A DNA stretch of 64,000 nt from Candidatus Micrarchaeota archaeon (GCA_032123335.1 JAQBFN010000020.1:7540-71539); one strand, 5' to 3'; positions 693 through 43,925 are shown, numbered from the stretch's first letter. Made by a program: numbers and translations. The notes: generated by a model not told the origin, from the sequence alone.

Positions 693-720
693 TGCTAACA
701 AGAATAAAGAGGTAACATAC

Positions 721-2069: not shown

Positions 2070-2075
2070 ATTTGA

Positions 2076-2681: not shown

Positions 2682-2707
2682 AGCTCCTTTATTTTTATTA
2701 TTTTTCT

Positions 2708-4912: not shown

Positions 4913-4980
4913 TTCTTTTCTTTTTTCCTTTTTCTTATCTTATTTCTGTTTTTACTAGGGTGTATGTAACCATGGTTACA
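4913..4980. terminator. T-rich tract followed by a perfect 18-bp palindrome (atgtaaccatggttacat, 4963-4980) between convergent fusA and the methyltransferase gene
   Basis: An oligo-T run (4913-4956) is the typical archaeal termination signal. The palindrome was read directly from the sequence. Confidence 0.35.
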
Positions 4981-4987
4981 TAGCACT

Positions 4988-5770
4988 TCAAACAGCCCTA
5001 GCAAGTATACCTTGCAGGCGGGCTTTCTTCTTCAGAACTTTCCACCCACACTCCTCCAGCCTATTAGCAACTTCCCCCATAATATCCCGCTTCTTTTTCC
5101 CCATGCTCCCCACATAATGGAAAAGCAAAGCATCCTTTTTGCAAATCCTCCTAAGCTCCCTATAGAGTTCCCGCGAATACAATTCCCCAGCTTTACTAAA
5201 CCTGGGAGGATCATGAATTACTTTTGTAAATTTCTCATCCTCCGCCCCCCTAATATAATCAAAACAGCTCTTCTCCCCAACAACCTCAATCCTTTTTCTC
5301 TCGAAAAGCTCCCTGCTCCACGGATTCCACTTCGCCATTGCAATCACCGCAGGCGAAAGCTCAACCGTAACAACCTTATCCGCTTTTTTGCTTGCAGCAA
5401 TTGCAGTGTACCCCAACCCCATGCAGGTATCCAGCACAACATCGCTCTGCACAAGCCTCAGTTCTCTCACAACCAATTTAGAATAATCAAATATATCTTC
5501 AAACTCTTTCACCAGATGCATCCTGAGCCCATCAATTTCCAGTATCGGCTTTCCTTTCATCATCCGCAGCCTATACAATCCATTATCAAAAACAGCAACC
5601 TTCCAAAGCTCCTTCCCATTCCATGCATAAACAAAATCCCCCTTTACTTCCTCCAGCGGAGCCCCCTCAAGCTCATCAGTAACCTCAATCGTGCTCCTCC
5701 CCAAATCCAGGGAAAGCTTCCGCTTCCCATCCAGATATTTCTCAACAAGCTCCTTCGTTAAATAAATCAT
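4988..5770 (-). CDS. Class I SAM-dependent methyltransferase (predicted archaeal N-methyltransferase, COG2521-like)
   Basis: Motif I VLDTCMGLGYTAIAA and a downstream HDPPRF (DPP[YFR]-type N-methyltransferase motif IV). Confidence 0.6.
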   Translation of the reverse strand: MIYLTKELVEKYLDGKRKLSLDLGRSTIEVTDELEGAPLEEVKGDFVYAWNGKELWKVAVFDNGLYRLRMMKGKPILEIDGLRMHLVKEFEDIFDYSKLVVRELRLVQSDVVLDTCMGLGYTAIAASKKADKVVTVELSPAVIAMAKWNPWSRELFERKRIEVVGEKSCFDYIRGAEDEKFTKVIHDPPRFSKAGELYSRELYRELRRICKKDALLFHYVGSMGKKKRDIMGEVANRLEECGWKVLKKKARLQGILARAV

Positions 5771-5822
5771 TTAATCTCAATCCTCCCGAACCGCGGAGGG
5801 GGACACCCCCTCCCCAGATTTT

Positions 5823-7106: not shown

Positions 7107-7223
7107 TACCTCTCAATATCTCTATTCAGAAATCTTTAAATCCCCAGTGGCGTATTGGAGCACTTCCATAACCCCACTGCAGCACGTACTCCAAAACGCC
7201 AACATCACGCTTTTAATATATTT

Positions 7224-7232
7224 CCATAAATA
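7224..7232 (+). promoter_or_regulatory. Putative TATA box (cataaatag) about 26 bp upstream of tRNA-Glu
   Basis: A/T-rich octamer at the archaeal TATA distance from the mature tRNA 5' end. Confidence 0.3.
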
Positions 7233-7250
7233 GAATTTCCTGCTTAATCA

Positions 7251-7325
7251 GCTCCTGTAGTCTAGCCCGGTCAAGGACTCCGGACTCTCACTCCGGTAGC
7301 CCGGGTTCGAATCCCGGCGGGAGCA
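7251..7325 (+). tRNA. tRNA-Glu (anticodon CUC)
   Basis: Manual cloverleaf fold. Acceptor GCTCCTG/CGGGAGC, anticodon stem CCGGA/TCCGG with loop CTCTCAC, T-arm CCGGG-TTCGAAT-CCCGG, discriminator A. CCA is not encoded. Confidence 0.85.
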
Positions 7326-7360
7326 CTTCAATTTTTATAATCATTATTCGTTTCTAAGCT

Positions 7361-8056
7361 ATGCCTTCTGCAAAAGAAATCCTTTCCAAACTCAAAAAAC
7401 TCGAAAACAAAAAGAACAAAGAAGGAATGGCCCGCTACGGAATAAACACAGAAAATGCATATGGAATTTCCCTCCCAATTCTCAGGAAAATAGCCAAAGA
7501 CCTCAAGACAGACCACAAACTCTCAATTGAACTCTGGAAAACCAAGAACCATGAAGCAAGGATGCTCGCCTGCTTTATAGGCGACCCAAAGCAAGTTACT
7601 GAATCCCAGATGGAATCATGGGTTAAGGATTTCAACTCATGGGATATCTGCGACCAGTGCTGCAGCAACCTTTTCGACCGTACTCCATATGCCTACAAAA
7701 AAGCAGCAGAATGGGCAAAAAGAAAAGAGGAATTTGTAAAGCGTGCAGGGTTTGTTTTAATGGCCGCCCTCTCAGTTCACGACAAGAAAGCTCTGGATTC
7801 CAAATTCACCAAATTCTTTCCCCTGATAAAAAAACATTCCACCGACGAAAGAAACTACGTAAAAAAAGCAGTGAACTGGACCCTCCGCCAAATCGGAAAG
7901 CGCAATCTCCCCCTAAACAAAAAAGCAATCCAACTGGTAAAAGAAATAAAGAAAATCGATTCAAAATCCGCAAGATGGATCGCTTCCGATGCGCTAAGGG
8001 AGCTCGAAAGCCCCAAAGTACAGCAAAGGCTAAAAAAGGCAAAACCCAAAAAGTGA
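7361..8056 (+). CDS. DNA alkylation repair enzyme (AlkD-like HEAT-repeat DNA glycosylase family)
   Basis: MARYGINTENAYGISLPILRKIAKDL…WDICDQCCSNLF pattern that I recall for the DNA_alkylation family. Assigned from memory of the family, not from a search. Confidence 0.55.
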   Translation: MPSAKEILSKLKKLENKKNKEGMARYGINTENAYGISLPILRKIAKDLKTDHKLSIELWKTKNHEARMLACFIGDPKQVTESQMESWVKDFNSWDICDQCCSNLFDRTPYAYKKAAEWAKRKEEFVKRAGFVLMAALSVHDKKALDSKFTKFFPLIKKHSTDERNYVKKAVNWTLRQIGKRNLPLNKKAIQLVKEIKKIDSKSARWIASDALRELESPKVQQRLKKAKPKK

Positions 8057-8060
8057 AACC

Positions 8061-8378
8061 ATGCTCAAATATGCATTCTTCGCCCTATTGCTCTTTTCCC
8101 TCTCTTTCAGCGTAGTAGGCGCTCAGTGCCACGACTTCGAGCAGTACTGCAAAAAGGAATCCTGCACCAGGGCCGGCGGGCAAATAAATGAATACAACAC
8201 CTGCTCAAAACCAGAAGGATTCAATGAAGAAATATACAAGGAAGAACTGGACAACTGCGCGTTCAATTACGATTACTGCGTAGAAAACGATGGAGTAGTA
8301 CGGAACATGTCCTGCTGTGGCCCAGTATTCATTTTCCTGTTTGCGCTACTGGTCCTCTATGCGGATGGTACTCGATAA
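8061..8378 (+). CDS. Small secreted Cys-rich protein with a PGF-like C-terminal anchor (…SCCGPVF-TM)
   Basis: N-terminal signal peptide, 10 Cys, and a C-terminal CCGPVFIFLFALLVLY hydrophobic tail. Its 3' end overlaps the convergent MFS gene by 50 bp. Confidence 0.4.
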   Translation: MLKYAFFALLLFSLSFSVVGAQCHDFEQYCKKESCTRAGGQINEYNTCSKPEGFNEEIYKEELDNCAFNYDYCVENDGVVRNMSCCGPVFIFLFALLVLYADGTR

Positions 8379-9510
8379 TAGTCTTCTTTTTCCCATCAAA
8401 ATCATCCATTATCTTTTTTCCCAGCACCACAAATCCTGAGAGAAGCACTGCAGAAAACACAAACATTGCTTCCGTCCCAAACGCTTCAAGTGCAAAACCC
8501 GCACCTGCAAATACCACGAAAGCCCCAAGATTAGTAGGTGCAATAAGCGTTGCAATCCTCGCTGAAACCCCCCGTTTCCCAGCTTCCACAAGGTACCCAA
8601 TCATACCCTCATTCAGCCCAAAGCAAACCCCGAACCCAAACCCTGCCAGCATAAGCACCGCGCTGAAGTACTGCCCTGCAAAAGGAAGCATAACAATCAT
8701 TGGAATCGCCATAAGCTGGAAGAACAGCAGCCTGCCCTCATCCATTTTCATCCTTACGCTCAGTAAACTCCCCATCCCCATGGACAGGTAGAATGCAGTA
8801 AGCATAATCGCAATCTCAAGGTAGCTCATTCCCATGTCAATGTCCATCATTACCGGAAGCAGGAAAGTGAACAGCAGCATAAACGAAACATTCACAAGCA
8901 CAACTGCAGCAGACACATGCCAGAAATCCAGGTGCCTCTTTTGTATATTGAACAGGCTCCTCCAATCCGGCTTTTCCATATTCGCTCCCCTATTCACAAG
9001 AGTAAGCGAAATCACTATCCCCACAAGCCCAATCGCAATAAGGACCGCAAAAACCATCTCGAACGAAAAATAAGCTATAATCAGCCCTGCCCCAATCAGC
9101 CCCATCGCAGCCCCAAAAGATCTCAAAACCCCCATCAATGTCAGGTACTTTTTCTCATGCGCCCTCGCCATTATCGCAGTACGGTCCACTGCCCAGAAAA
9201 ATGCATCCGTAGCACCCTCACTTATTTTCCCAAGCCCAAACATCAAAGGTGTTTTCGCAAACAGCAGAATCACATTAGTTATCGTATGGAAAACAGTATT
9301 TGCAATAAAGAATGGCTTCACCCCCTTCACATCCGCAAACACAGAAGAAATAGTCCTCACAATCAGGAACGCAAGCGGAAGCAAAGAAAGAATCAGCCCA
9401 ATCTCCCCAACATCTATCCCCCGGCTGATAAGGTAAAGCGGAAGCGTAACCGTAAGCGCCCCATACTTAAATTGCTGGATGAAGTTGAGAGTGCCTATCT
9501 TCCTGAGCAT
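8329..9510 (-). CDS. MFS-type transporter
   Basis: About 12 predicted TM helices with a two-halves organisation. Hydrophobic throughout. Confidence 0.75.
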   Translation of the reverse strand: MLRKIGTLNFIQQFKYGALTVTLPLYLISRGIDVGEIGLILSLLPLAFLIVRTISSVFADVKGVKPFFIANTVFHTITNVILLFAKTPLMFGLGKISEGATDAFFWAVDRTAIMARAHEKKYLTLMGVLRSFGAAMGLIGAGLIIAYFSFEMVFAVLIAIGLVGIVISLTLVNRGANMEKPDWRSLFNIQKRHLDFWHVSAAVVLVNVSFMLLFTFLLPVMMDIDMGMSYLEIAIMLTAFYLSMGMGSLLSVRMKMDEGRLLFFQLMAIPMIVMLPFAGQYFSAVLMLAGFGFGVCFGLNEGMIGYLVEAGKRGVSARIATLIAPTNLGAFVVFAGAGFALEAFGTEAMFVFSAVLLSGFVVLGKKIMDDFDGKKKTIIEYHPHRGPVAQTGK

Positions 9511-9579: not shown

Positions 9580-10221
9580 ATGCTCGATGAACAGCTCAGG
9601 GAACAGGTAAGGAAAAAACTCTCTTCCGAAATGAAGGGAAACGTAAAGCTTATACTTTTTGGTGAAGGCAACGACTGCACTTACTGCCTTGAATACAAAG
9701 AACTCGTAGAAGAACTCGCATCCCTAAGCGAAAAACTCTCATCAGAAGTCCATCCCTTTTCTTCCCCGGAGCGCGAAAAATACGGCGTAGACATCGCCCC
9801 CTCTTTAGTAGTTTATTCCGAAGAGCACGATACAAGCGCAATCTTTTGCGGACCCCCCGGCTCCCATTTTTTCATAATCCTGCTCGAAGACATACTCGAT
9901 GCCTCCCGCGGTTCCCCCGATATCTCCAAAGAAGTAATTGAAAAAGCAAAAGCCATAGATTTCCCCGTAAAAATCCGGGTGTTCGCTTCCCAGACCTGCC
10001 CCCACTGCCCCCCCGCAGTAAAAGCGGCGCACGATTTTTCCCTCATCAACCCAAAAATAAAAGCCCAGATGGTCAACAGCTCCTTTTTCCCTGCACTCTG
10101 CCAAAAATACCGCGTAATGGGAGTCCCCAAAACAGTAATCAATGATAGGATCGAATTCACGGGTGCGCAGCCCCCAAGCGAGCTCCTGAAACACATCCTC
10201 AGGCTTAAGGAAAATCCCTGA
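9580..10221 (+). CDS. Protein disulfide oxidoreductase (two thioredoxin-fold units; archaeal glutaredoxin-like PDO)
   Basis: Two CxxC active sites (CTYC and CPHC) in a ~210-aa protein, as in Pyrococcus PDO. Confidence 0.75.
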   Translation: MLDEQLREQVRKKLSSEMKGNVKLILFGEGNDCTYCLEYKELVEELASLSEKLSSEVHPFSSPEREKYGVDIAPSLVVYSEEHDTSAIFCGPPGSHFFIILLEDILDASRGSPDISKEVIEKAKAIDFPVKIRVFASQTCPHCPPAVKAAHDFSLINPKIKAQMVNSSFFPALCQKYRVMGVPKTVINDRIEFTGAQPPSELLKHILRLKENP

Positions 10222-15927: not shown

Positions 15928-16000
15928 GGCCATGGTAGTGTAGCTGGCATCACGGGGGGTTGTGGTCCCCTTAACCCGAGTTCGAATCTCGGTCATGGCC
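15928..16000 (+). tRNA. tRNA-His (anticodon GUG) with a genome-encoded G-1
   Basis: Acceptor GCCATGG/TCATGGC, anticodon stem GGGGG/CCCCT with loop TTGTGGT, T-arm CCGAG-TTCGAAT-CTCGG. An extra 5' G at 15928 pairs with discriminator C73, the archaeal tRNA-His hallmark. Confidence 0.85.
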
Positions 16001-16032
16001 CTTCAATTCCGGCCCATCAGAAAAAGAGTAAT

Positions 16033-20018: not shown

Positions 20019-21083
20019 ATGGATATTGAAAAGAAAATCGAACTCACTATGAAAGCCCCTACCCAGGAGCTCGTAACCAAGGAAGACCTCAAAACCCTTT
20101 TTGAAAATCACGCGCACCCCAAGCACTACATTGGATTTGAAATCTCCGGTTTTGCCCACATCGGAACCGGCCTCGCAACATCCCTCAAAGTAAAGGATTT
20201 GCTCGAAGCCGGCTGCAAGCCCACCATCTTCCTTGCTGATTACCATACCTGGATAAACGGCAAGCTTGGAGGAGACCTGGATAAAATAAGGCAGGTTGCA
20301 GAAGGCTACTTCAAGCACTGCTTTATCGCGCTCGGCCTTCCCGAATCCAAAGTAGATTACGTGCTTGCAAGCAACCTCTACGATTCCGATTACTGGAAAA
20401 CCGTTTTGGACATCAGCAGGAACACAAGCCTTAACCGCATGCTCCGCTGCATTACCATTATGGGACGCAAGGAAACCGACACCACCTCCTCTGCTTCAAT
20501 CCTCTACCCCGCAATGCAGGCCGCAGACATCTTTATGCTCAAAGTGCAAATCGCGCACTCTGGAATGGACCAGCGCAAGGTCCACATGCTTGCAAGGGAA
20601 GTGGCGCCCAAGCTCGGGGCTGAAAAGCCCGTAGCCCTTCATGGCCACCTCCTCCCTAGCCTGCATGGCGTAGAGCGTATGAATCCCACCGAGGACCAGG
20701 TAATTGATGCAAAGATGTCCAAGTCCAAGCCTGATTCCGCAATCTTCGTGCACGAGCCCGAATCCGAAATCCTCCGCAAGGTAAAGAAAGCATACTGCCC
20801 TGAAAAAGTTGCGGATGGAAACCCAATGATTGAATATGCGGAAAACCTTGTTCTCCGCGACCGCCCGCTCAAAATCGAGCGCCCGGAAAAGTTCGGAGGA
20901 AACGTGGAATTCGCAACTTCCTTAGAGCTCCGCGAAGCCTATACAAGCGGTGCACTCCACCCAATGGACCTCAAGAATGCAGTGGGAAAAGAACTGGTAG
21001 AAATGCTTAAGCCCGTTCGGGACTACTTTGAAAAGCATCCCAAATACCTCAAGGAACTCGAGGGAATGCGGATAACCCGCTAG
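20019..21083 (+). CDS. tyrS: Tyrosyl-tRNA synthetase (archaeal type)
   Basis: KMSKSKP. A C-terminal block KAYCPEKVADGNPMIEYAENLV…ERPEKFGGNV…LHPMDLKNAV is nearly identical to M. jannaschii TyrRS. Confidence 0.9.
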   Translation: MDIEKKIELTMKAPTQELVTKEDLKTLFENHAHPKHYIGFEISGFAHIGTGLATSLKVKDLLEAGCKPTIFLADYHTWINGKLGGDLDKIRQVAEGYFKHCFIALGLPESKVDYVLASNLYDSDYWKTVLDISRNTSLNRMLRCITIMGRKETDTTSSASILYPAMQAADIFMLKVQIAHSGMDQRKVHMLAREVAPKLGAEKPVALHGHLLPSLHGVERMNPTEDQVIDAKMSKSKPDSAIFVHEPESEILRKVKKAYCPEKVADGNPMIEYAENLVLRDRPLKIERPEKFGGNVEFATSLELREAYTSGALHPMDLKNAVGKELVEMLKPVRDYFEKHPKYLKELEGMRITR

Positions 21084-21790
21084 CTTCGCGCAAACGCTTC
21101 CACAATTTTCTTTATCTTTTTATTCGCTTCTCCCATATGCTCCAGCACTTCCTTGTGCGTAAGCTCTTTCTTCCCTTTAATTCCCGCAGCATAATTAGTC
21201 CCAACTGCAATCCCACACAAAGGAATCTCCAGCTCCCCCGCAAGCGTTGCTTCATACGCACTGGTCATATTAACCAAATTCGCACCCATCCCCTTCAACG
21301 CCTTAACCTCTGCCCGCGTCTCAAACCTGGGCCCATGCGTAGTAGCTACAATTCCCCCTTTCTTCAGCTTAATTCCCGCACCCTTCGCAGCACCTTCCAC
21401 TTTTTTGGAAATCGCTTTATTGTACGGCTCACTCATGTCCGCATGTGTTATCCCGGATTTAAACGCATCATAATATGTAATCGGTGAATTAAACCCGATA
21501 AAATCCTCCAGCAAAACCAAATCCCCTGGTTTATACCTTCCAATTATCCCTGTTGCATAAAACACAAGAACCGCATCAACTCCCGCATCCTTCATTGCCC
21601 AGATGTTCGCCTTATAATCCACTTTATGCGGAGGCGTCCCATGTTCCTCCCCATGCCTTGGCATAAACAAAACTTCCCTCTTCCCAATCTTCCCACTATA
21701 CACAGTAATTGTCCCGTACGGAGTCCTCTTCCTCCCCCTTTCCATCCGCCCCAATGAGTAGATTCCGGTGCCCCCAATAATCCCAATCAT
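21080..21790 (-). CDS. mtnP: 5'-methylthioadenosine / purine nucleoside phosphorylase
   Basis: MIGIIGGTG…PRHGEEHGTPPHKV…ANLVNMT is the PNP/MTAP family signature. Confidence 0.85.
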   Translation of the reverse strand: MIGIIGGTGIYSLGRMERGRKRTPYGTITVYSGKIGKREVLFMPRHGEEHGTPPHKVDYKANIWAMKDAGVDAVLVFYATGIIGRYKPGDLVLLEDFIGFNSPITYYDAFKSGITHADMSEPYNKAISKKVEGAAKGAGIKLKKGGIVATTHGPRFETRAEVKALKGMGANLVNMTSAYEATLAGELEIPLCGIAVGTNYAAGIKGKKELTHKEVLEHMGEANKKIKKIVEAFARS

Positions 21791-21841
21791 GCTTCCAATA
21801 GAAGGGGGGAGTTTTTTATAAGTTTTGGTCGATATCTCTGC

Positions 21842-22033
21842 GTGATATATATGAAAGCAATGTATCTCGCACTATGCTTAATGCTCGTTCTCGCAGGAAC
21901 AGTAATGGCATACACTGGCTACGATGACGACTACTATTACGACGACTATGCATATGACGATTACGGATGCTGCTGCGGACCCATGTTCGCACTGGTCGCT
22001 GTTGGAGCATTCGCCCTCTCCCGAAGGCACTAG
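21842..22033 (+). CDS. Small secreted Asp/Tyr-rich peptide with a CCCGP-TM-RRH C-terminal anchor
   Basis: Signal peptide, YDDDYYYDDYAYDDY, then GCCCGPMFALVAVGAFALSRRH. Its stop abuts the PLD gene start. Confidence 0.4.
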   Translation: MIYMKAMYLALCLMLVLAGTVMAYTGYDDDYYYDDYAYDDYGCCCGPMFALVAVGAFALSRRH

Positions 22034-22540
22034 ATGAATAAGGATTTCTTTGCCGGTGTTTTTGCCGGCGTAATCCTCTTTTTTGTTCTCTCATTCATGT
22101 TTCTTCCCGCATATTCCGTTTCCGTAATCTCTTCTCCCGGAGCCGAAGACGAAATCCTCTCCCTTATTGATTCCGCCCAGCACTCAATCTACATAGACAT
22201 GTACATACTCACTTCCGAAAAAGTTGTGGATGCACTAATCTCCGCCCACTACCGCGGCGTAGAAGTAAAGGTAATCCTTGAAGAGCGCACAGGTGCAAAC
22301 ACCCTTGCTTTCTCCCGCCTTGAAGGTGCAGGCACCCAGGTCTGCTGGGCCTCTGCAGTCTACAAGCTCTCCCACCCCAAACTCATAATTGTGGACAACC
22401 AGAAAGCCCTGGTAGGCTCCCACAACCTCTCCAACTCCGCCCTTAATTCCAACCGGGAAATCTCCCTCCTTGTCCAGGGAAACGTAGTTTCTACCCTCCT
22501 TTCCCTTTTCAATTCCGATTGGGATGCCTGTTCCATGTAG
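22034..22540 (+). CDS. Secreted phospholipase-D-family (HKD) nuclease/phosphodiesterase
   Basis: N-terminal TM/signal. Single HKD motif HPKLIIVDNQKALVGSHNLSNSA (HxKx4Dx6GSxN), as in Nuc-type PLD nucleases. Confidence 0.75.
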   Translation: MNKDFFAGVFAGVILFFVLSFMFLPAYSVSVISSPGAEDEILSLIDSAQHSIYIDMYILTSEKVVDALISAHYRGVEVKVILEERTGANTLAFSRLEGAGTQVCWASAVYKLSHPKLIIVDNQKALVGSHNLSNSALNSNREISLLVQGNVVSTLLSLFNSDWDACSM

Positions 22541-22591
22541 CCCACTTCTCTCGAAACTCCTCCTAAGCCTTATAAATATATTCTGTCAAAT

Positions 22592-25500
22592 ATGAATATG
22601 GCAGCAGTTGTAGAGCGGAGTAATTGGTGTAAATTACTGCTAGCCGTATTTATGCTCGTTTCCCTCTCTTTTTCCGCCGGATTCACCTCCGAAGACCTTT
22701 CCAATAAAATAACCTTCATTGACATCTCTGCCGTGGATGGAGTGGTAACCGCCAAGCTCACTGTGCTGACGATGGATGCCAGCATTGAGCACAACCAGTC
22801 CGCCCTCATTGAGGCGTTCAGGGAAGCAGAGAAAGGAAACCAGGCAACCGCAGAGCAAATCCTCGAGGAAGCAGGCCTGAACACTTTCTCAGGGTATTTA
22901 GGCAAAATCGAATCTGAAAGGGCCCCCATAGAAGGTGCAGACCTCAATTTCTACTACACAGTAAAAACCTACGATGATGACAACTATCCTGTCTTCACCA
23001 GGGAGCCAGTGCCCTTTTGTGCAGAGCCAGACCCGGTGCTAACTGATGAGGAGGGGATCGCAGAATGCGACCTCACCCCTTATTATGAAGGAATATACGA
23101 GGGTAAATGCACAGAAATTTCCGTGGTTTTCGGGGATTCAGTATTTGGCACCCAGCTAAATGACGAAACTTATCCCTATGTAGAAGAGATAGTTTACGTA
23201 TGTGACCAGGAAACAACCGCACTCGCAGTAATGCGCGAAGAGATAAGGACCATATTCTCAGACCAGGCCCAGAACCCCCTCTGCTTTGCATCAATGCTTT
23301 TGGGAGGAATGCTGCTCGCTTCAATGTTCTTTGCAGGAAGGAGCCCACTTTCCCTCCTTGATATCACAACACCCCTTCTCCCCAAGGCAAAAGCCATCTC
23401 CTACAGCGGCCTTAGGATGGGAGTCGGTTTCGGGCGCATCATGAAAGAGATGGGTGGCATGGGCGGGCCCGGAGGCATGATTGCATCCTCTTCCAAAGCA
23501 ACCACCGAGCGCATGCTCCGCTACCTCCGCTCCAAGGGCAAATACAGCAAGCGCATGGTTGACCTCATAATGAATTCCGGGGCCAATGAAGTCCTCAAGA
23601 TGCTTGCTCTCCGCTCACTTATTGCAGGAAAAAGCGAGCATTATGTAAAGGGCATTCTCGGGTTCAAGGGAAAAGCCCTGACTGAAGCAGATTTCCAGTC
23701 GGCCTATGCAAAGGTTCTTGCAGACCTTGATAAATCTTCAGATGCAAACGACCTGAATGAATACACGGTTAAGGGGTATGGTGCTAATGCACAGAAGCAG
23801 GGCCTCCACGATTCAGTGCTCCTCCTTGCCCAGATGAGCATGCTTAATGCAATGCAGCAGCAAGCCTTTATTGATTCTACCGGGGAAATACCTGCCTGGT
23901 TCAAGACCCCGCTTGGAAAAACCCTGGGAAGGCTCCCCTTCATCGGAACCCACATAATGGGAGGCACAGCATCCCTCTTTTTTGGTGGCAGGCACCTAGG
24001 CCGCTATTACAATAGTTTTGCAAGGGGAGCAGTGCGCGGAATAGGCGATGTGTTAACCCCCAAAGATAAGAAATTCAGCAAGCGCATCCAGATGGCTGTT
24101 GACGATGCGCGTGTAAAAGGCAAGAAGCCAGGATTTTTTGCAAACTGGGTTGCCCTCAAGGACAATGAGCGCCAGCTCGTAAAAATCTTTGACAATTTTG
24201 AATACGGTTCCGCACTCTACAAGCGCATGATGAAGGAAGCCCGCAAGGATGTCCTCAACTGGCTCGTGGGTACGGTAATTGCGAAATACGGAGGAAAGAT
24301 GGACCTCACCCGTGAAGAGGTTATAGAAATTGGGGAAAAGACTCCGGATGAATTGATGTTCCGCACCTTCAACAAGATTGAATTCTCAAAGATTGAAGGA
24401 GAGCTCCGTAGGCTCCTCTCAGATCCAGGCATGAGGGACCTCCAGAAAGCCCGCGCCCTGATGCGCCTTATGGAAGCATACGGAATAGCTTTCGACAAAC
24501 AGGGCGTTACTGATGCAATCCACATGCTCTCCAAAATAGACCGGGAAGACCCCAAATCCCCTGCAGCAGTAGGCATAATCGATCCGACCAACAGGTACGC
24601 AATGGATTGCCACAAGCTCATGCGCCTCCAGAGCTACCTACAACAGCAGTTCAACGTTGACAGGCTAACAGACATCAAGTCAGAGTACAAGGCTTTCCAG
24701 GACGGAGGAAAATTCTTCTTCACAGTAGGAAGGGAAACCCTCTCCCACGGCGCAAGCGATTTCACGTTTGGCACCTTTTTCCGCTCCAAGTACCGCGAGG
24801 CGCTTGAGAACTCCAAAGCAGGGGAAACCCGCCCCATCTCCATAAGGGACATCGCGAACTACTCTTTCCTCCGCATCGCAAACGAGCGCTGGGGACTAAT
24901 TGACCCAAATATGCCCGGCCTGGACAAGAAGCTCGTAGCAGTAATGAAGAACGCAGAAACCTGGCTCCGCTCCCTAGCAGATCCAGAGTTCCTCAGGCGC
25001 AACCCCTCGTACTCCAATCTTCTCAATTCCCTTTATGGCCCAAGTGCCCGTGCTGGTGTGAAAGACGACACCATGGACATAATGGAGCACGGTGCCGAAT
25101 ATGGCACAGCCAAGGGCGCGTGGCGCATGGACATGAAGGCCCACTGGAAAATTTACGGGGGCCCGATGGGCGGAGTAAAATCTTCTGTAGAAAACCAGGC
25201 ATTTGGGGAAGTTAACCGTGCCCACAATGTCCCCATGGCTATCCAGTCGATGATTGACAAGGGACTCAACTACAAGGATGCTTCAGGCAAGTACATGAAC
25301 ACTGTTGTTGAAAGCTACCTCTTCAAGCGCCTGAAGGGAATGATAGAGCAGGACAATCCAAATACCTATTTCACTTCCCAGGGTGAATTCGACCGCTTCA
25401 GGCAGCTCTGGGCCTCTTACAAATCACACATTGCCAGAGACAAAGGCATAGATGAAAGGAGTGTTACCGACAAGCAGGTTGCAGAATTCATAAAGAAGCC

Positions 25501-28219
25501 CCTTGGGATTGAGGAGCTTTCAAAGTCCAGCTGGATAAGGCTGAAGGAAGGCTCAGTTGCTCCGTTTATCCAGGAACACACTTTCAAGCTTGCCCAGGCC
25601 GACCGTGTAATAAACGCCAAATATTACATACGGCGTGGCGGGTACTGGGAGGAATTCGCGCCTGAGAAATTCCAAAAGCAGAAACCATTTATGGATGTTG
25701 TCCTGGGCAAGGACAGCGAAATCAGGAAAATGCTTGGGGACAAGGATTACATTCTTTCTGGAGGTGAGATACGTGGTGTATCCAACAAGCTCCTGAAGGA
25801 ATATGAAACTATTATGAATAACCTGGCGCGAGTACCCCAGGCAGATATTGACAAGCTTTTCGCGAAACTCAAAACAGGCGCTGCGAAAGACCCCAAGAAT
25901 TCTGAAGCCTATGCTGCAATGGCAGGATATGTGCTCAGTGGAAGGGCAGGAAGGGACCCAACTAAACTTGACCTTGCCGATAATTTCGGGACCCGTCTAG
26001 GTGAAAAAGTCCGCATGGAACTCATGCTCAAGGACTACCAGAATGCCAAAACCACGGAGCAGAAAAGGGCTGCCGCCAGGGACCTTATGAACTGGGCAAA
26101 AGCAGGAGGGCCTGGTGAGGAGCGCCACGTAAAAGTCGCCCTCCTCCTGTACACCCACGCAGACAGAACCGGGGACTGGAAAGATTTCAACAATTTTGAT
26201 GCAGTGAAGCTCATGCCCGGTGCAACTGCAGATCTAAAGCCTGGCAATGTCCAGGAGTACGAAAAGCTCACCGGGCTCAAAGGCTGGATCAAGAATGCAG
26301 TTAACCTCACCCAACACATCACAGACCCGATAAGCAAGAAGTTCAACCTTGGGCTTGAGCAGTTCATGCTTTCCACTTTCGGCAAGCAAATGAAGAGCGA
26401 ATATGAAGGAAGCCTTGTTTCAGAATACTTCAGGCAAACAGGAGGAAAATTCGCTGCTAAGCTTGCGGCAGGGGAATTCGGCAACCCGGATATGCGAGCC
26501 AACGCGGACCCAAGAATAAAGGAATTCAACCGCCTCATGGATTCATTTACCCGCTACCATGCAGTCTGGGACGAGACAATCACCCGTGACCCCAGGGGCA
26601 ACTCTTCAGCCATTGGGGGCGCATTCATTTACTCAGGTTTCTTCCACCACGGTCCTGCCATGGGATTCGGCCCCGGCATGTACAGGAGATGGTCGTCTGC
26701 AGGCCACCAGCAGCCCTGGACTACCTGGGGAGGATTCAAGGCAAATGTGCGTGAGCGCGCATGGGGCCTCCAGTTTGTCCCCCAGATGTTCAACTGGGCA
26801 GTGGGAACTCCTTTTGGTGTTGCCTACAGGACATACATAACCTCCAGATGGGGCTTCATGTCCAAGTATGACAGGAAATACAGCAGTGACGCCCCCCTAG
26901 TCACAGAAACCCCTGAAAAATACCGTGCAGGCGCAATTCAGAAATATGATGATCAACTGGCAGCCTATCAGGCTAAAATGATTGAGCAGATTGCTAAACT
27001 CCAGCAAAACAAGGGCTATTCAAACGAAGATGCATTTACCCAGGCCAACCAGGAGCTCAGGGGTGAAAGGCCAACTCCTCCTTCATTTGAGCTGGAGCGT
27101 GACACCCTCAGGCCCTATTCCGAAACCCACCCCAGGACTTCAGAAGGCCGCGCTGCAATGTTCAACTGGTTTTATGCTTCATTTGACCCCACATCAACGA
27201 ACCTCAAGCGTTTTGCATCAATCGCGGCCGCTGCACCCGGTTCACTTATGACTCCCCTGCACCTAATCAGAGGAGTGCAGAGCAATATCCTGAAGGGGGG
27301 CACTCCCGGGATAAACCGCTCTGACAGCAACCCATACTATGTAACTCCCGGAGGAATGAGGGGCCAGATGATAAAGGCTACTGGCCCCATGGTCAAGAGG
27401 CAGTATGGAGGAACTGAAATTGTTACCGGTGTAGTACGGTCCCATGAAGATATGTGGGCTTACCAGGCAGGGGTTAATGCTGTTTGGGGCAATGCAAACC
27501 CCGGCGCATCCTACATTGATTTCAGCCAGAGCCTACACCTGGACCCCCGCGCAGCCAACTATCTCCGCTATGAATCACGTTTCCGCCCATATATGCAGTA
27601 TGATGAATATGTGGACAAGCAATCCAAGCTCGGCCTTGTGAAGAGGGACATCGACCCATTCAAGCTCATGATGGCAAGGAATGCAGAAATCAGGCATTAT
27701 AAGTTCCCTGAGAACACTCTCTTCAGGTTCCTAAACCCAGCAGCATTCGCTATCTACAAAGCACAAGCATTTGTTACCAAGCGCGGGCAAACCCTTGTCA
27801 ATGCAAGGAACATGTATAGGGATGCAACAACCAATGTTTCAACCACCACCGGCGGGGCTATGCTTACAGGAGTAGGCAACTTTGCATCCAAGATAGGTGG
27901 CAAGGTAGGGACTATGATGCACCAGAATCTAGAGCTTGGATTCAGGAAGAGCATCCGCTACTGCCAGTCCTGCGGAGGGCCGAGGGTTGAAGGCGGCGTA
28001 TGCAATGCCTGCGCAAGAAAAACAAGATGTTCTTACGAAGGATGCGACCATATCGGGGACCCATCCCACAACCACTCCTGCGTACATGGAATACAGCGCA
28101 ACCTCCTGAATGAAGAATTTTCTCAAAAAGGCGGCTTCAAAGTTGCAGGAGAGAGGGCCTCCGGTTGGTATGGCCTAAGAAAAAGCCATTGGGGAACACT
28201 ATGGGGTAGAGAACCATGA
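22592..28219 (+). CDS. Giant (1875 aa) single-pass membrane/surface protein of unknown function
   Basis: Uninterrupted 5.6-kb ORF. N-terminal signal peptide, a ~220-aa N-terminal domain, then one TM (…CFASMLLGGMLLASMFFAG…). No P-loop or known catalytic motif. Trp/Gly-rich segment (aa ~1330-1420). C-terminal Cys/His cluster CQSCGG…CNAC…CSYEGCDH…HNHSCVH. Confidence 0.7.
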   Translation: MNMAAVVERSNWCKLLLAVFMLVSLSFSAGFTSEDLSNKITFIDISAVDGVVTAKLTVLTMDASIEHNQSALIEAFREAEKGNQATAEQILEEAGLNTFSGYLGKIESERAPIEGADLNFYYTVKTYDDDNYPVFTREPVPFCAEPDPVLTDEEGIAECDLTPYYEGIYEGKCTEISVVFGDSVFGTQLNDETYPYVEEIVYVCDQETTALAVMREEIRTIFSDQAQNPLCFASMLLGGMLLASMFFAGRSPLSLLDITTPLLPKAKAISYSGLRMGVGFGRIMKEMGGMGGPGGMIASSSKATTERMLRYLRSKGKYSKRMVDLIMNSGANEVLKMLALRSLIAGKSEHYVKGILGFKGKALTEADFQSAYAKVLADLDKSSDANDLNEYTVKGYGANAQKQGLHDSVLLLAQMSMLNAMQQQAFIDSTGEIPAWFKTPLGKTLGRLPFIGTHIMGGTASLFFGGRHLGRYYNSFARGAVRGIGDVLTPKDKKFSKRIQMAVDDARVKGKKPGFFANWVALKDNERQLVKIFDNFEYGSALYKRMMKEARKDVLNWLVGTVIAKYGGKMDLTREEVIEIGEKTPDELMFRTFNKIEFSKIEGELRRLLSDPGMRDLQKARALMRLMEAYGIAFDKQGVTDAIHMLSKIDREDPKSPAAVGIIDPTNRYAMDCHKLMRLQSYLQQQFNVDRLTDIKSEYKAFQDGGKFFFTVGRETLSHGASDFTFGTFFRSKYREALENSKAGETRPISIRDIANYSFLRIANERWGLIDPNMPGLDKKLVAVMKNAETWLRSLADPEFLRRNPSYSNLLNSLYGPSARAGVKDDTMDIMEHGAEYGTAKGAWRMDMKAHWKIYGGPMGGVKSSVENQAFGEVNRAHNVPMAIQSMIDKGLNYKDASGKYMNTVVESYLFKRLKGMIEQDNPNTYFTSQGEFDRFRQLWASYKSHIARDKGIDERSVTDKQVAEFIKKPLGIEELSKSSWIRLKEGSVAPFIQEHTFKLAQADRVINAKYYIRRGGYWEEFAPEKFQKQKPFMDVVLGKDSEIRKMLGDKDYILSGGEIRGVSNKLLKEYETIMNNLARVPQADIDKLFAKLKTGAAKDPKNSEAYAAMAGYVLSGRAGRDPTKLDLADNFGTRLGEKVRMELMLKDYQNAKTTEQKRAAARDLMNWAKAGGPGEERHVKVALLLYTHADRTGDWKDFNNFDAVKLMPGATADLKPGNVQEYEKLTGLKGWIKNAVNLTQHITDPISKKFNLGLEQFMLSTFGKQMKSEYEGSLVSEYFRQTGGKFAAKLAAGEFGNPDMRANADPRIKEFNRLMDSFTRYHAVWDETITRDPRGNSSAIGGAFIYSGFFHHGPAMGFGPGMYRRWSSAGHQQPWTTWGGFKANVRERAWGLQFVPQMFNWAVGTPFGVAYRTYITSRWGFMSKYDRKYSSDAPLVTETPEKYRAGAIQKYDDQLAAYQAKMIEQIAKLQQNKGYSNEDAFTQANQELRGERPTPPSFELERDTLRPYSETHPRTSEGRAAMFNWFYASFDPTSTNLKRFASIAAAAPGSLMTPLHLIRGVQSNILKGGTPGINRSDSNPYYVTPGGMRGQMIKATGPMVKRQYGGTEIVTGVVRSHEDMWAYQAGVNAVWGNANPGASYIDFSQSLHLDPRAANYLRYESRFRPYMQYDEYVDKQSKLGLVKRDIDPFKLMMARNAEIRHYKFPENTLFRFLNPAAFAIYKAQAFVTKRGQTLVNARNMYRDATTNVSTTTGGAMLTGVGNFASKIGGKVGTMMHQNLELGFRKSIRYCQSCGGPRVEGGVCNACARKTRCSYEGCDHIGDPSHNHSCVHGIQRNLLNEEFSQKGGFKVAGERASGWYGLRKSHWGTLWGREP

Positions 28220-30588
28220 ACAAACTGCACATATTCATACTGATTGCAATTCTGCTATTCGGATGCACAGAAATGGAAAACTATTATGAGGGGGAAGGGA
28301 AAGAAATAAACCGCACAGAACCCCTGGATATGGACAACCTGATTTCCTGTGACACCACAGACCATGATTGCATCTGCATGGTCTGCGAAAACAGTGATTC
28401 ATTTGAATTCACCAATCCCTTCAACCGTTTTTACAGCATAGACCTCAGGGAAGGAGAATGCAGATTCGAAACAGATTGCACAGAGGAAAAATTCCTGGAA
28501 ATCTCCACCCCGGATTTTGAGAATTTCCTTTTTGGCCAGGAGCAGGTGCGCTTCTTCATGCTTGGCCAGGGCTCGAATTTTGCAGAGTTCGCAGACGCAA
28601 ACCGCTACTGCAATAACTCCCTTAGGCTCGCAGTCCGCTGGCTCTATTCCACTGATGGATTTGAGTATCCTGCCCCCCAGCCCGAGCGCGCAGAATGCTT
28701 CCTTGAAAAGGACACGCTTCCCGTTTACCTCCTTTACAGCGAAGGAGAAGCAATGAGCGTCCCCCGTGCTGCTTACATCGCATCGCAATTCCAGGAATCC
28801 GGCCCCGTAATCCTTACTTCTGAATTCGATTTCGACCCCTCCAACTTCCAACAGCTTAACGATGCAATAGACCAGGCTATCGCAATGAAATCCGCTTGCC
28901 CTGATTGCCTGATTGCAATCGCACCCAAATTCAAATACAACTACAGCGAAGTTGATGGCGAATATTACGGCTATAACCACACCTACGATGCAATCGATTA
29001 CATTTTCGAGACCCAGGAGGCCCGTGACAGCATAGCCCTTGTTGCCATAGGCCTCAATTCCCATTACACCCAAAACTGTGCAGGCGCTTCCCTCCTTTGG
29101 GATGGGATGGCTTACTCCAAATACATAATGCAGCAGCATGGAAAGCCCACGCTCTGGGCATATGTTCTTCTTGATGATAGGCAGCCCAGTGCAGCCCCCT
29201 ATGGTTCCCTTGAATACTGCGAATGGAATTCAGATGAGATCACACGAACATACGGTGACCTCTACAAATACATCCCCTCTTTCGTAAACAATGGGGTAAT
29301 CGGAATCGCCCCATATTCCCTTTACGGTCTGGGTACGGGTCCGCTTGAATGCGCAGATTGCGGAATGATGGCAGTGGATGGAACAACTTATCCACAGCAC
29401 GCAGAATGGTTTTCCCTCTGCCAGGTTTACTATACCGGGAGGGGAGTAATCCCAGTGGTTTTCTCCCCCAGCCCATGCGCTGACTGCTCATTTGCAAACA
29501 ACTTCAACATGTTCCAGCTTTCCGACTCTTACTACGGCTCCGGCCCAACCATTGAGCAATACCAGGACAAGGCAGTTGCTCCCTTCTCCACATTCTATAG
29601 GTGCAACGGACAGCTCATGAGTGAGGTACCCGAAGAGATAACCCTCCCTTCTTACTCTGCGGGCGATAATGAATGCAACTGGTACCCCGAGCTGGATATT
29701 TTCTCAGACCTCCGAGACTCCGACCCTGTGCTTGCCCGTGCAATAACCTGGGGTGAAACCGGCTTAAATGATGATACTGAAGGCCCAGATGGCGACATGT
29801 GTGAAGCTTCTGATGTTGATTTTGGCCTGGCCAGCTTTCCTGAATGCGTAACCGACCCAGAGGGAAGATGTGGAACACAGTGCGCCCCGACAAACTGGCG
29901 CAAGCATTCCCTGGGCCTCATGCAAATCCATGTATATCCCCAGCAAATCTGGGCCGATTATCCCCCTGGCTCTGGAACAGAGCAGGAGGCTCTCTGGTGC
30001 GCTGGAAATGCCGTAGATGGATTCAACCCATTCAACAAAGCCCACAACGCATGCGTAGGGACCGCAATCATCCTGGAATATCTCCAGGTGGGAAAATCCA
30101 AGGTTTCAAGCAATGAGCAGCAGCTCGGGCTCGCCTACCTAAAAACCACATATGGGGAAGACAGCGATGAATACCTCAACATGAAGAACGCATTCATTGT
30201 TTTCATTTCTTCTTATTACTACAACGGGTTCTCAGCCTTCCAGAACGGAATAGATTCCTGGATATATGAATACTCCAAGCAGAGCGGGATAACCGATGAA
30301 TACTGCGAAGTTGCAGCCGGCTCAGACCCCTGCTGCAACAGCGATGGCACAGCCAAGAGCAACAACTGCTGTGGAGTAGAGAACTTCATAAACTACTACC
30401 AGTCCTGCAAGCTCCCCACACTTTCCAACCAGCAGGCAGGGGCATACGGGCTTAGGCTCCTCGGCCACTACAAAGCCCTTCTAAAATGCGAAAAATACGA
30501 TGAGGCCCAGCACGAGCAGAACCTCATAGACTACCTTGAATCCTATGGTGAATCATTAGAAGAACCAGAGGAAGCGGAAGAAAGCTAG
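28216..30588 (+). CDS. Cys-rich lipoprotein with lytic-transglycosylase (SLT/lysozyme-like) motifs
   Basis: Lipobox LFGC. About 50 Cys. ITWGETGLN…SLGLMQIHVY…KAHNACVG…AIILEYLQ corresponds to SLT motifs I-III (E-S/T, GLMQ, AYNxG). 4-bp overlap with the giant gene. Confidence 0.55.
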   Translation: MNKLHIFILIAILLFGCTEMENYYEGEGKEINRTEPLDMDNLISCDTTDHDCICMVCENSDSFEFTNPFNRFYSIDLREGECRFETDCTEEKFLEISTPDFENFLFGQEQVRFFMLGQGSNFAEFADANRYCNNSLRLAVRWLYSTDGFEYPAPQPERAECFLEKDTLPVYLLYSEGEAMSVPRAAYIASQFQESGPVILTSEFDFDPSNFQQLNDAIDQAIAMKSACPDCLIAIAPKFKYNYSEVDGEYYGYNHTYDAIDYIFETQEARDSIALVAIGLNSHYTQNCAGASLLWDGMAYSKYIMQQHGKPTLWAYVLLDDRQPSAAPYGSLEYCEWNSDEITRTYGDLYKYIPSFVNNGVIGIAPYSLYGLGTGPLECADCGMMAVDGTTYPQHAEWFSLCQVYYTGRGVIPVVFSPSPCADCSFANNFNMFQLSDSYYGSGPTIEQYQDKAVAPFSTFYRCNGQLMSEVPEEITLPSYSAGDNECNWYPELDIFSDLRDSDPVLARAITWGETGLNDDTEGPDGDMCEASDVDFGLASFPECVTDPEGRCGTQCAPTNWRKHSLGLMQIHVYPQQIWADYPPGSGTEQEALWCAGNAVDGFNPFNKAHNACVGTAIILEYLQVGKSKVSSNEQQLGLAYLKTTYGEDSDEYLNMKNAFIVFISSYYYNGFSAFQNGIDSWIYEYSKQSGITDEYCEVAAGSDPCCNSDGTAKSNNCCGVENFINYYQSCKLPTLSNQQAGAYGLRLLGHYKALLKCEKYDEAQHEQNLIDYLESYGESLEEPEEAEES

Positions 30589-30992
30589 TTCTTCCTTCCA
30601 AACCCTAATTTCCTTTTCCAGTAGAAGAATGTTCTCCTGGGCATCATGAGCTCCTTCATTTTCTCATCATTGCTCGTTTTCTTGGAAATAACCGCCCTAA
30701 TCTTCTTCTCATCATATTTCTGCGGCCTTCCCCTCTTGCACTTCCTTACAATGACCTCTACGCTCTTCCCCAGGCTCCCCATCACTTTCCTTGGGATAGT
30801 CCTGGAAATGCCTTCGCTTATGTATAATTTCTTTATTCTTGTCTCATTAAGCAGGATCACAAACATCATCACATTAGGCTTGGTTTTCAAAAAGAATGAT
30901 TCTGCATCCTTGTTATCAGTTATCTGCCTATAGATGTTATCCCTGGTTCCTTTGAGCTCGATTGCGCTAAGTTCTTTTGAACAATCCGGCAT
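30585..30992 (-). CDS. Small HTH-domain protein (possible transposase-N-terminus-like or regulator)
   Basis: …EGISRTIPRKVMGS…KRGRPQKY… resembles homeodomain-like HTH modules. No catalytic domain. Confidence 0.3.
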   Translation of the reverse strand: MPDCSKELSAIELKGTRDNIYRQITDNKDAESFFLKTKPNVMMFVILLNETRIKKLYISEGISRTIPRKVMGSLGKSVEVIVRKCKRGRPQKYDEKKIRAVISKKTSNDEKMKELMMPRRTFFYWKRKLGFGRKN

Positions 30993-37227: not shown

Positions 37228-37300
37228 AGCCGTGAACGAGAGTCGAACTCGTGACCTCGTGCTTACCAAGCACGCGCTCTACCAACTGAGCTACCACGGC
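37228..37300 (-). tRNA. tRNA-Thr (anticodon GGU)
   Basis: Reverse complement folds as GCCGTGG-TA-GCTC-AGTTGGTA-GAGC-G-CGTGC-TTGGTAA-GCACG-AGGTC-ACGAG-TTCGACT-CTCGT-TCACGGC-T. Confidence 0.85.
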
Positions 37301-43826: not shown

Positions 43827-43840
43827 CGTTTGAAAGATTT

Positions 43841-43913
43841 TGGGGCCGCCGAGATTTGAACTCAGATAACATGCACCCCAAGCATGCAGGATACCAGGTT
43901 ACCTTACGGCCCC
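43841..43913 (-). tRNA. tRNA-Pro (anticodon GGG)
   Basis: Reverse complement: GGGGCCG-TA-AGGT…-CATGC-TTGGGGT-GCATG-TTAT-CTGAG-TTCAAAT-CTCGG-CGGCCCC-A. Confidence 0.8.
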
Positions 43914-43925
43914 AATTTAACTTCC

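Follow-up and report, generated by a model that had tools for sequence, protein, structure and literature searches.

This analysis concerns four adjacent genes in a stretch of 64,000 nucleotides (nt) from a Candidatus Micrarchaeota archaeon (GCA_032123335.1, JAQBFN010000020.1:7540-71539; hereafter the window), two of which, encoding a giant membrane protein and a Cys-rich lipoprotein, form a conserved pair. The four open reading frames (ORFs; 21842-22033, 22034-22540, 22592-28219 and 28216-30588) lie on one strand. The stop codon of the first is directly followed by the start codon of the second (TAG then ATG, 22031-22036), while the stop of the giant gene and the start of the lipoprotein gene share the sequence ATGA at 28216-28219. 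An earlier note on this DNA had described four same-strand genes that abut or overlap and whose products all carry an N-terminal signal peptide or transmembrane (TM) segment; both ORF junctions were found as described, and hydropathy analysis indicated a hydrophobic N-terminal segment in each of the four products. The features of the locus are as follows:

21811-21820, + strand: TATA-like box TTTTTATAAG, about 30 nt 5' of the peptide ATG, read from the sequence
21851-22033, + strand: pre-peptide of 60 residues, with a Sec-type signal peptide (residues 1-20), an Asp/Tyr-rich core of about 19 residues, CCCGP, a TM helix and RRH
22034-22540, + strand: PLD-family protein of 168 residues with a single HKD motif, N-terminally anchored (TM helix at residues 6-24)
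22373-22426, + strand: HKD motif of the PLD protein, H114-P-K-LIIV-D-NQKALV-GSHN, an intact HxK(x)4D(x)6GSxN
22569-22580, + strand: TATA-like box CTTATAAATATA, 18-29 nt 5' of the conserved ATG at 22598
22598-28219, + strand: giant orphan membrane protein, 1,873 residues from the conserved start and 1,875 residues from ATG 22592
28216-30588, + strand: lipobox protein of 790 residues, its start overlapping the giant stop (ATGA)

The locus was compared with its relatives using hidden Markov model searches across all fetched loci, with duplicates collapsed. The lipoprotein gene was located directly 3' of the giant gene in 25 of the 26 loci having downstream sequence. The PLD gene was found within about 1.3 kb 5' of the giant gene in 13 of 28 assessable loci only, and the gene for the CCCGP peptide in no more than five (the window, L001, L002, L009 and L010), where it always abuts the PLD gene. 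Since the PLD gene is so often absent from the locus and the peptide is confined to one clade, neither belongs to the core; the invariant unit is the pair of giant and lipoprotein, not the four-gene operon proposed in the earlier note. The pair is kept even where the flanks have changed, as in L006, with a CPSase gene upstream, and in L005, in which the giant is only remotely similar and the 777-residue partner matches the lipoprotein family (hhalign E 4e-62). In the window, L001, L002 and L005, the two genes overlap by 4 or 8 nt. The sole exception to the pairing was observed in L026, a metagenome-assembled genome (MAG) labelled 'Ca. ainarchaeum', in which the gene after the giant homologue encodes another lipobox protein (...AISGCGKQ..., 7700-8629) that gave no match to the 790-residue family.

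Homologues of the giant were full-length at identities from 100% down to about 23%, and those of the lipoprotein extended down to 28% identity. An exhaustive search with HMMER through 1.84 billion cluster representatives, with a profile of the giant's C-terminal 620 residues as the query, matched 84 proteins, and the full-length ones were nearly all 1,500-2,000 residues long, with the matching region at the same C-terminal position. Because there were so few matches and they were so uniform in length, the giant family appears to be closed, with relatives neither short nor characterised. A pattern scan covering a single genome for each GTDB species gave 25 loci, all of them in MAGs labelled Micrarchaeota or Micrarchaeia save two labelled 'Ca. 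ainarchaeum'; apart from those two, the pair was thus found only in MAGs assigned to Micrarchaeota, a phylum of the DPANN archaea, and the homologues that carry names likewise assign the source of the window to this phylum. It is single-copy and vertically inherited, and in all sampled clades it occupies the same locus beside the genes for TopoVI, DUF530 and tyrosyl-tRNA synthetase (TyrRS). Since full-length homologues occur across dozens of independent assemblies, we reject both an assembly chimera and chance ORFs, and take all four ORFs to be genuine genes. The three objections that the earlier note had itself raised were therefore looked into, with the outcome that the block is present in relatives, that the giant is no chimera, and that the exhaustive scan found no homologue of the giant with a known function and none outside Micrarchaeota MAGs other than the two mentioned above.

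The comparison also bore on gene starts and putative promoters. The peptide homologues begin at a position matching ATG 21851 (MKAMYLAL...), not GTG 21842, which makes ATG 21851 the most likely start and shortens the peptide from the 63 residues initially reported to 60, while its CCCGP-TM tail stands as described. The second ATG of the giant ORF, 22598 (MAAVV...), is kept as a start in five loci and is most likely the one used; residue numbers of the giant given below follow the ORF from ATG 22592. The box at 21811-21820 is a putative promoter of a peptide-PLD unit, and that at 22569-22580, found at equal spacing in all five loci compared (the window, L001, L002, L003 and L006), a putative promoter of the giant and lipoprotein genes' own. 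Its position 18-29 nt before ATG 22598 implies a leaderless or short-leader mRNA for the giant. As this promoter-like element sits within the gap of 51-57 nt between the PLD and giant genes, the block probably consists of two bicistronic units, peptide-PLD and giant-lipoprotein. A scan for sigma-70 promoters and intrinsic terminators was uninformative for an archaeon.

Exactly two hydrophobic segments were detected in the giant by hydropathy analysis, and they divide the protein as follows:

Residues 13-31: signal peptide or TM1 (hydropathy)
Residues 32-229: ectodomain, acidic (40 D/E versus 11 K/R), with four conserved Cys
Residues 230-248: TM2 (hydropathy)
Residues 249-267: near-invariant juxtamembrane motif GRSPLSLLDITTPLLPKAK
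Residues about 268-1780: predicted cytoplasmic region, basic, Cys-poor and mainly helical
Residues 1791-1835: C-terminal zinc ribbon, CxxC...CxxC plus further Cys and His

The approximately 1,625 residues that follow TM2 are predicted to be cytoplasmic because they are basic, contain a single Cys before the C-terminal cluster, and end in the CxxC...CxxC zinc ribbon. We therefore predict a type-I protein with a cleaved signal peptide, a disulfide-bonded ectodomain of about 200 residues, one TM helix and a cytoplasmic domain of about 1,600 residues. The same plan was found in about 78 full-length members of the family, in which an acidic ectodomain having 4-8 Cys precedes a basic remainder having 0-5, and CxxC pairs are present at the C-terminus; one member carries the NCBI name 'zinc ribbon domain-containing protein', and one distant member gave a weak Zn_ribbon_3 match. 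This topology does not agree with the earlier description of the locus as a secreted operon, as about 1,625 of the 1,875 residues of the giant are predicted to be cytoplasmic. A protein that lies mostly inside the cell cannot by itself serve as a long adhesin or as an arm for breaching another cell.

The best-conserved stretch of the giant is the TM helix together with GRSPLSLLDITTPLLPKAK, and further conserved blocks lie at residues 1250-1350 and 1600-1700. The motif has the general form G-[RK]-S-P...D-x-T-x-P and lies where this helix ends on the cytoplasmic side. For the window protein, Pfam, NCBIfam, PADLOC and PDB gave no match; when 23 family members and 5 distant ones were scanned as well against the first three, only the weak zinc-ribbon match came up, and PDB sequence and profile searches with the giant and lipoprotein families returned nothing. 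Neither internal repeats nor motifs of the Walker A, HExxH or DEAD type were revealed by a motif scan of the giant. The AlphaFold2 model of residues 677-1875 was mostly helical and of low confidence (pLDDT 53, pTM 0.42), and a Foldseek search with it listed helical-repeat matches only (best E 0.9), which were not significant and were discarded. The initial statement that the giant has no recognisable domain is thus correct as far as these databases are concerned, with the exception of the C-terminal zinc ribbon.

The lipoprotein is composed of the following parts:

Residues 16-17: invariant G16-C17 of the lipobox, in the lipoprotein signal peptide
Residues about 45-100: Cys-rich N-terminal module
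Residues about 105-420: (beta/alpha)8 barrel resembling glycoside hydrolases (GH), whose predicted strand 4 ends in the invariant E203
Residues about 490-700: SLT-like domain, with the invariant E514, GLMQ at 567, FNPFN at 603 and YYNG at 668
C-terminus: Cys-rich helical module, then an acidic tail

The lipobox reads L-F-G-C in the window protein and conforms to the pattern [LVI][ASTVI][GAS]C; G16-C17 is present in 26 of 26 members, with a hydrophobic residue at position -3. The product is accordingly a predicted lipid-anchored lipoprotein, a class of proteins reported to be prevalent in DPANN archaea (PMC12462473). It contains 33 Cys, i.e., the lipobox Cys and 32 others, and about 27 Cys are invariant in the family alignment. 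The PHROGs family phrog_902 (function unknown) matched the signal-peptide/lipobox region (residues 1-63, nt 28216-28404) in 5 of the 26 members, with a best E of 7e-5, which probably reflects a generic similarity of lipoprotein leaders; beyond this match, PHROGs and NCBIfam scans of the family were uninformative.

The AlphaFold2 model of the lipoprotein was good (pLDDT 80.8, pTM 0.78), with residues 490-770 helical and confidently predicted, and fold searches with the model revealed the (beta/alpha)8 barrel fold of clan GH-A. E203, at the strand-4 acid/base position of this barrel, is a candidate catalytic Glu. In the SLT-like domain, E514 lies in the context W-x-E-[TS]-G-[FL]-N and is followed by GLMQ (567), FNPFN...N.C.G (603) and YYNG (668); in the 26-member alignment, G567 is invariant and Q570 at least 90% conserved. 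The window protein gave no match to PF01464 (SLT). We then compared the domain, profile against profile, with E. coli Slt70, EmtA, MltC and MltD using hhalign: the intact domain gave a probability of 57% (E 1e-4), and once a 36-residue Cys-rich insert that separates motif I from motif II had been excised, it was 93-94% (E 1-2e-7), with motifs I-III aligned. We accept an SLT-like domain with an intact candidate catalytic Glu, on motifs and profile alignment, at scores below the threshold of PF01464 itself. The lytic-transglycosylase motifs, the lipobox and the abundance of Cys had all been pointed out in the earlier note, which had overlooked the GH-type TIM barrel.

Evolutionary rates were compared as percent identity between the window proteins and their counterparts in L003. 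The values were 82% for TopoVI-A, 72% for TyrRS, 59% for DUF2070, 51% for PLD, 35% for the lipoprotein and 26% for the giant; the pair stays in place yet diverges far faster than all its neighbours. The ectodomain and the linkers are among the least conserved parts of the giant. Fast divergence is the usual signature of surface and interaction proteins, and it argues weakly for a non-self target.

These findings led us to propose, with a probability of about 0.45, that the pair constitutes a lineage-specific envelope module, in which the giant, as a transmembrane scaffold, would position or control a membrane-tethered double glycanase. This proposal follows from the near-invariant pairing of the two genes even where the flanks have changed, as well as from the conserved TATA-like box, the topology with an acidic ectodomain, the invariant lipobox and the fast divergence; more broadly, the locus probably has a role in cell-envelope or host-contact biology. 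The lipoprotein gene would be co-transcribed with the giant gene and, in the clade of the window, translationally coupled to it. Its product would be exported, lipid-anchored via the lipobox Cys and heavily disulfide-bonded, and would bear two domains that cleave glycans, one a TIM barrel like those of clan GH-A and the other SLT/lysozyme-like, both with an invariant candidate catalytic Glu. The giant's ectodomain may bind and position, or gate, this glycanase at defined sites on the cell surface, and its cytoplasmic mass may link these sites to the cell interior, so that glycan of the cell's own envelope, or of a contacted cell's, would be cut locally and under control from inside. Bacterial cell-wall hydrolases of the FtsEX-EnvC/PcsB type are likewise under the control of a transmembrane partner. 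The concept shared with them is that of an extracytoplasmic hydrolase timed or placed by a membrane protein of which a large part is cytoplasmic, although this is a functional analogy only: there is no relationship in sequence or fold, and no ATPase is present here.

Several observations weigh against this proposal. Both fold searches with the lipoprotein model listed barrel matches only, and none to a lysozyme-like fold, the barrel dominating the rankings. PF01464 matched just 5 of the 26 members at the SLT-like site, at 14-20.6 bits against a cut-off of 21.3, and the high SLT probability was obtained only upon manual excision of the insert. The conserved residue after predicted strand 7 of the barrel is Asp320 (at least 90%), not Glu, with strands numbered by DSSP order and not by superposition; with Asp at the canonical nucleophile site of clan GH-A, the barrel may be non-classical or even non-catalytic. 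Since AlphaFold2, Foldseek and the motif scan detected neither fold nor motif in the cytoplasmic domain of the giant, 'scaffold/regulator' is the default reading of this protein, based on its size, topology and gene coupling. The pair also lies within a very stable housekeeping block, so that its adjacency could partly be ancient frozen synteny. Finally, while gene structure, folds, motifs, predicted topology, phyletic range, synteny and rates are as described above, we infer the physical interaction of giant and lipoprotein, the enzymatic activity, the substrate and the choice between a self and a host target.

The two upstream genes were considered separately. The PLD protein matched PF13091 (PLDc_2) with 87.1 bits (cut-off 27, E 1.2e-24) and its HKD motif is intact, in agreement with the HKD/PLD family assignment in the earlier note. 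Its nearest solved relative is the endonuclease Nuc (1BYR; E 3.7e-13, residues 36-148), and the next PDB matches were the phospholipase 7e0m, MitoPLD/Zucchini and NucT. NucT equivalog level was not reached (29-51 bits against cut-offs of 211-351), and matches to DrmC (PADLOC, best E 5.4e-22; NCBIfam, E 6e-17, 61.9 bits against a cut-off of 133) were generic. The protein is thus best described as a Nuc-like predicted phosphodiesterase, whose PDB relatives span nucleases and phospholipases. With Nuc of pKM101, NucT and Zucchini/MitoPLD it shares one HKD motif, a length in the range of about 155-200 residues and an N-terminal signal or anchor, whereas it differs from Nuc and NucT in being archaeal and membrane-anchored, in scoring far under the NucT and DrmC cut-offs, and in being genetically coupled, in one clade, to a CCCGP-anchored acidic peptide. 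A gene for an MTAP/purine-nucleoside phosphorylase (21080-21790, - strand) is divergent from the peptide-PLD pair, and the presence of a nucleoside-salvage enzyme beside a Nuc-like PLD hints at nucleic-acid scavenging. The peptide-PLD unit looks like an accessory surface phosphodiesterase and no obligate part of the module; most likely it would be a separate, facultatively linked surface unit that breaks down nucleic acid outside the cell (or phosphodiester lipids) for salvage.

The tail of the peptide, ...GCCCGP-MFALVAVGAFALS-RRH, has the layout of CGP-CTERM, i.e., Cys-Gly-Pro, a TM helix and a basic cluster, and the same layout was found in its four homologues (L001, L002, L009 and L010). 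After removal of the signal peptide, about 19 Asp/Tyr-rich residues would be exposed. A second tail with Cys-Gly-Pro and a TM helix was observed in the window in a 105-residue ORF (8061-8378, + strand; ending in ...NMSCCGPVFIFLFALLVLYADGTR) that has no Pfam match, and its presence in the same 64 kb favours a proteome-wide CGP-CTERM-like sorting signal over a coincidence. The peptide gave no match to TIGR04288 (CGP-CTERM) even at E values up to 10, and none of the multi-TM ORFs of the window, which covers just 64 kb of the genome, is a CPBP protease (PF02517, MrtA-type). CGP-CTERM has been reported only from Thermococcales, where lipidation of the Cys and cleavage by the CPBP protease MrtA have been proposed (bioRxiv 10.1101/2023.06.07.544157). 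The likeness lies in Cys-Gly-Pro abutting a TM helix and in basic residues at the extreme C-terminus; however, CGP-CTERM proteins average 583 residues and have Thr/Ser-rich linkers, whereas the cargo here is an Asp/Tyr peptide of about 19 residues. We therefore speak of a Cys-type tripartite C-terminal sorting signal resembling CGP-CTERM, and such a tail outside Thermococcales would widen the known range of Cys-type C-terminal sorting signals.

A narrower form of the envelope-module proposal, which we consider possible, though on the whole unlikely, is a host- or prey-contact apparatus. The lipoprotein would cut the murein, wall or surface glycans of another cell, the PLD enzyme would attack that cell's nucleic acids or phospholipids, and the giant would anchor this 'feeding site' to the symbiont's interior. 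In favour of it, SLT-type domains are murein-specific in bacteria and normally absent from archaea, and the large SLT proteins of Woese-/Pacearchaeota have been interpreted in the same way (PMC8204110); archaeal peptidoglycan hydrolases that kill bacteria are documented (PMC12352652), and Micrarchaeota rely on their hosts for lipids and metabolites (PMC8975820). The divergence of giant and lipoprotein relative to their neighbours, with the ectodomain among the giant's least conserved parts, and the Nuc-like nuclease adjoining a nucleoside phosphorylase gene are also consistent with contact. However, PMC8975820 and PMC11329633 report no murein for the cultured hosts that they cover, a single-membrane Thermoplasmatales archaeon and a Metallosphaera with a surface layer (S-layer). 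Moreover, the module is single-copy and vertically inherited within a housekeeping block, whereas host-range factors are often variable or multi-copy, an enzyme lipid-tethered under the symbiont's own S-layer would have limited reach, and the PLD and the peptide are dispensable neighbours. The earlier note had favoured another cell as the target; nothing that we computed singles it out, and remodelling of the cell's own envelope is equally compatible with the data.

Such self-envelope housekeeping, in which the pair would trim the glycans of its own S-layer or pseudo-periplasm during growth, division or the insertion of surface structures, with the giant as a cytoskeleton-like organiser, is an explanation that we also consider unlikely on the whole, and only slightly less probable than contact. 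It agrees with the constant location of the pair beside TopoVI, DUF530 and TyrRS in every clade sampled, with the invariance of the candidate catalytic Glu residues, which implies one conserved substrate, and with the mostly cytoplasmic mass of the giant; in bacteria, specialised lytic transglycosylases such as VirB1, FlgJ and EtgA likewise make local gaps for envelope-spanning machines. On the other hand, core machinery usually evolves slowly and this pair is the fastest-evolving one in its neighbourhood, and no homologue was detected outside the recovered MAGs (Micrarchaeota and the two 'Ca. ainarchaeum'), so that the function cannot be one general to archaea. Furthermore, no polysaccharide wall has been reported for Micrarchaeota, for which a proteinaceous S-layer is described (PMC8975820, PMC11329633).

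An improbable and frankly speculative extension is that the pair is the symbiont-side machine of the Micrarchaeota intercellular junction. In the cultured Micrarchaeote ARM-1, cryo-electron tomography has revealed an unidentified barrel-shaped platform of about 21 nm under the S-layer, where host nanotubes dock (PMC11329633), and the pair might account for the identity of this platform. If this were true, the glycanase would open the envelope locally, the ectodomain would form or nucleate the platform, and the 1,600-residue cytoplasmic domain would organise exchange. In the same speculative vein, the juxtamembrane motif of the giant could be a site of regulated intramembrane cleavage, by which the cytoplasmic domain would be set free on contact.

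Competence-like DNA uptake, which the earlier note had also considered, appears very improbable. An extracellular nuclease, a wall-opening enzyme and a basic giant with a zinc ribbon would here bind and import DNA. NucT, which reportedly has a role in Helicobacter transformation, is indeed among the relatives of the PLD protein, although NCBIfam and PDB list it as a nuclease only, and the cytoplasmic domain of the giant is basic and ends in a zinc ribbon. However, beyond its signal peptide the giant crosses the membrane with one helix only, and it contains neither a channel-like multi-TM domain nor an ATPase motif, for which reason we reject an uptake channel; the nuclease gene is not at the locus in about half of the lineages, and the gene tables of the examined flanks contain no pilin, ComEC-like or Ced/Ted-like genes. 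An island for defence against phages or other mobile genetic elements, with a DrmC-like PLD nuclease and a large effector, is scarcely credible and in its DISARM form effectively refuted: besides the generic DrmC matches, whose NCBIfam score is less than half the equivalog cut-off, the block contains no DrmA, DrmB, methylase or any other PADLOC match, all products are extracytoplasmic or membrane proteins, the PLD domain itself being predicted to be extracytoplasmic, and the locus keeps its synteny and is inherited vertically, unlike a variable island.

The surroundings of the locus were annotated using Pfam/NCBIfam-type family scans. Upstream are the housekeeping genes for DUF2070, TyrRS and the divergent MTAP/purine-nucleoside phosphorylase; downstream follow a convergent gene for a 135-residue basic protein and the housekeeping backbone with DUF530 and TopoVI-A. 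A mobile element is rejected, as throughout the phylum the locus remains in synteny with housekeeping genes. The 135-residue protein (30585-30992, - strand; 4-nt overlap with the lipoprotein stop) is very basic (34 K/R; ...KRGRPQKY...FFYWKRKLG...), had no family match in these scans and may be a small protein that binds DNA. It holds the same position in at least 11 related loci, as do DUF530 and TopoVI-A; these three form a stable backbone, and no further conserved partner of the pair was found in the flanks. Five tRNA genes were detected in the window (Glu-CTC 7251-7326, His-GTG 15929-16001, Thr-GGT 37228-37300, Pro-GGG 43840-43914 and Leu-GAG 57279-57364); none adjoins the locus, and there is therefore no sign of an integration site. 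The GC skew of the + strand is negative nearly throughout the 64-kb window (cumulative -5.3), independently of gene orientation, and in the interior of the giant gene (24-28 kb) it is about 0, with a positive AT skew. A thioredoxin/DsbA-like protein (9580-10221, + strand; Thioredoxin_3, E 3.8e-20) could help to form the disulfides of the organism's many exported proteins that are rich in Cys.

Two related loci or groups of loci have other genes next to the giant. Upstream of the giant homologue in L005, the most distant locus (72-8936, - strand), are nine consecutive genes on the opposite strand, the furthest of which encodes a SecD/SecF-family protein (72-1238) and the other eight proteins of 83-488 residues with no Pfam match. 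In L015-L021 and L025, from a clade that has giants of about 1,590 residues and mostly lacks an adjacent PLD gene (L021 has one), the gene directly upstream is divergent (- strand) and encodes a Cys-rich protein of about 370-390 residues that, judged by eye, looks like Nar1 or an [FeFe]-hydrogenase large subunit.

Among described systems, the lipoprotein can be compared with the family-1 lytic transglycosylases (PF01464; Slt70, EmtA/MltE, MltC and MltD), with which it shares motif I, E-[ST], GLMQ, an aligned NPxxNxxxGxxxL and a subsequent YYxG; its predicted membrane tether, on the outer face, is another feature in common with the Mlt lipoproteins. It differs from them in scoring below the gathering threshold, in its 36-residue disulfide-rich insert, in the fusion to a GH-type TIM barrel and Cys-rich modules, and in belonging to an organism without known murein. 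From clan GH-A (GH1, GH2, GH5, GH10, GH39, GH51 and GH53) it is set apart by an identity of only 6-13%, by the lack of any Pfam or CAZy-type sequence match, and by Asp320 in place of Glu at the strand-7 nucleophile position. The SLT proteins of Woese-/Pacearchaeota (fam00969) are also predicted DPANN surface proteins with murein-transglycosylase-like domains and have been read as murein-binding or murein-degrading factors of cell-cell interaction (PMC8204110). They reach up to 3,000 residues, are reported as unique to Woese-/Pacearchaeota and, in a comparison by description only, have no giant single-pass partner (PMC8204110). In the literature searched, we found no description of the Micrarchaeota family, of the barrel-plus-SLT architecture or of the coupled giant; the earlier statement that no system of this composition has been described holds to this extent, but SLT-domain surface proteins of DPANN archaea had already been reported. 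We regard the pair as a putative DPANN surface glycanase system that has a truly orphan protein, the giant, at its centre.

DPANN archaea are abundant as well as ultrasmall and depend on hosts, and to our knowledge the molecules of their cell-cell interfaces are almost entirely unknown. The locus provides a concrete, Micrarchaeota-specific candidate for such an interface, and an exported enzyme with two glycan-cleaving folds would be notable, given that SLT-type folds are normally absent from archaea (PMC8204110). As a single-copy, vertically inherited and adjacent pair, the two genes would be tractable for localisation, proteomics and enzymology, provided that they are present in the existing Micrarchaeota co-cultures. 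The substrate of the putative glycanase would tell whether the target of Micrarchaeota is bacterial murein, the glycans of a host or an as yet unrecognised glycan of their own envelope.

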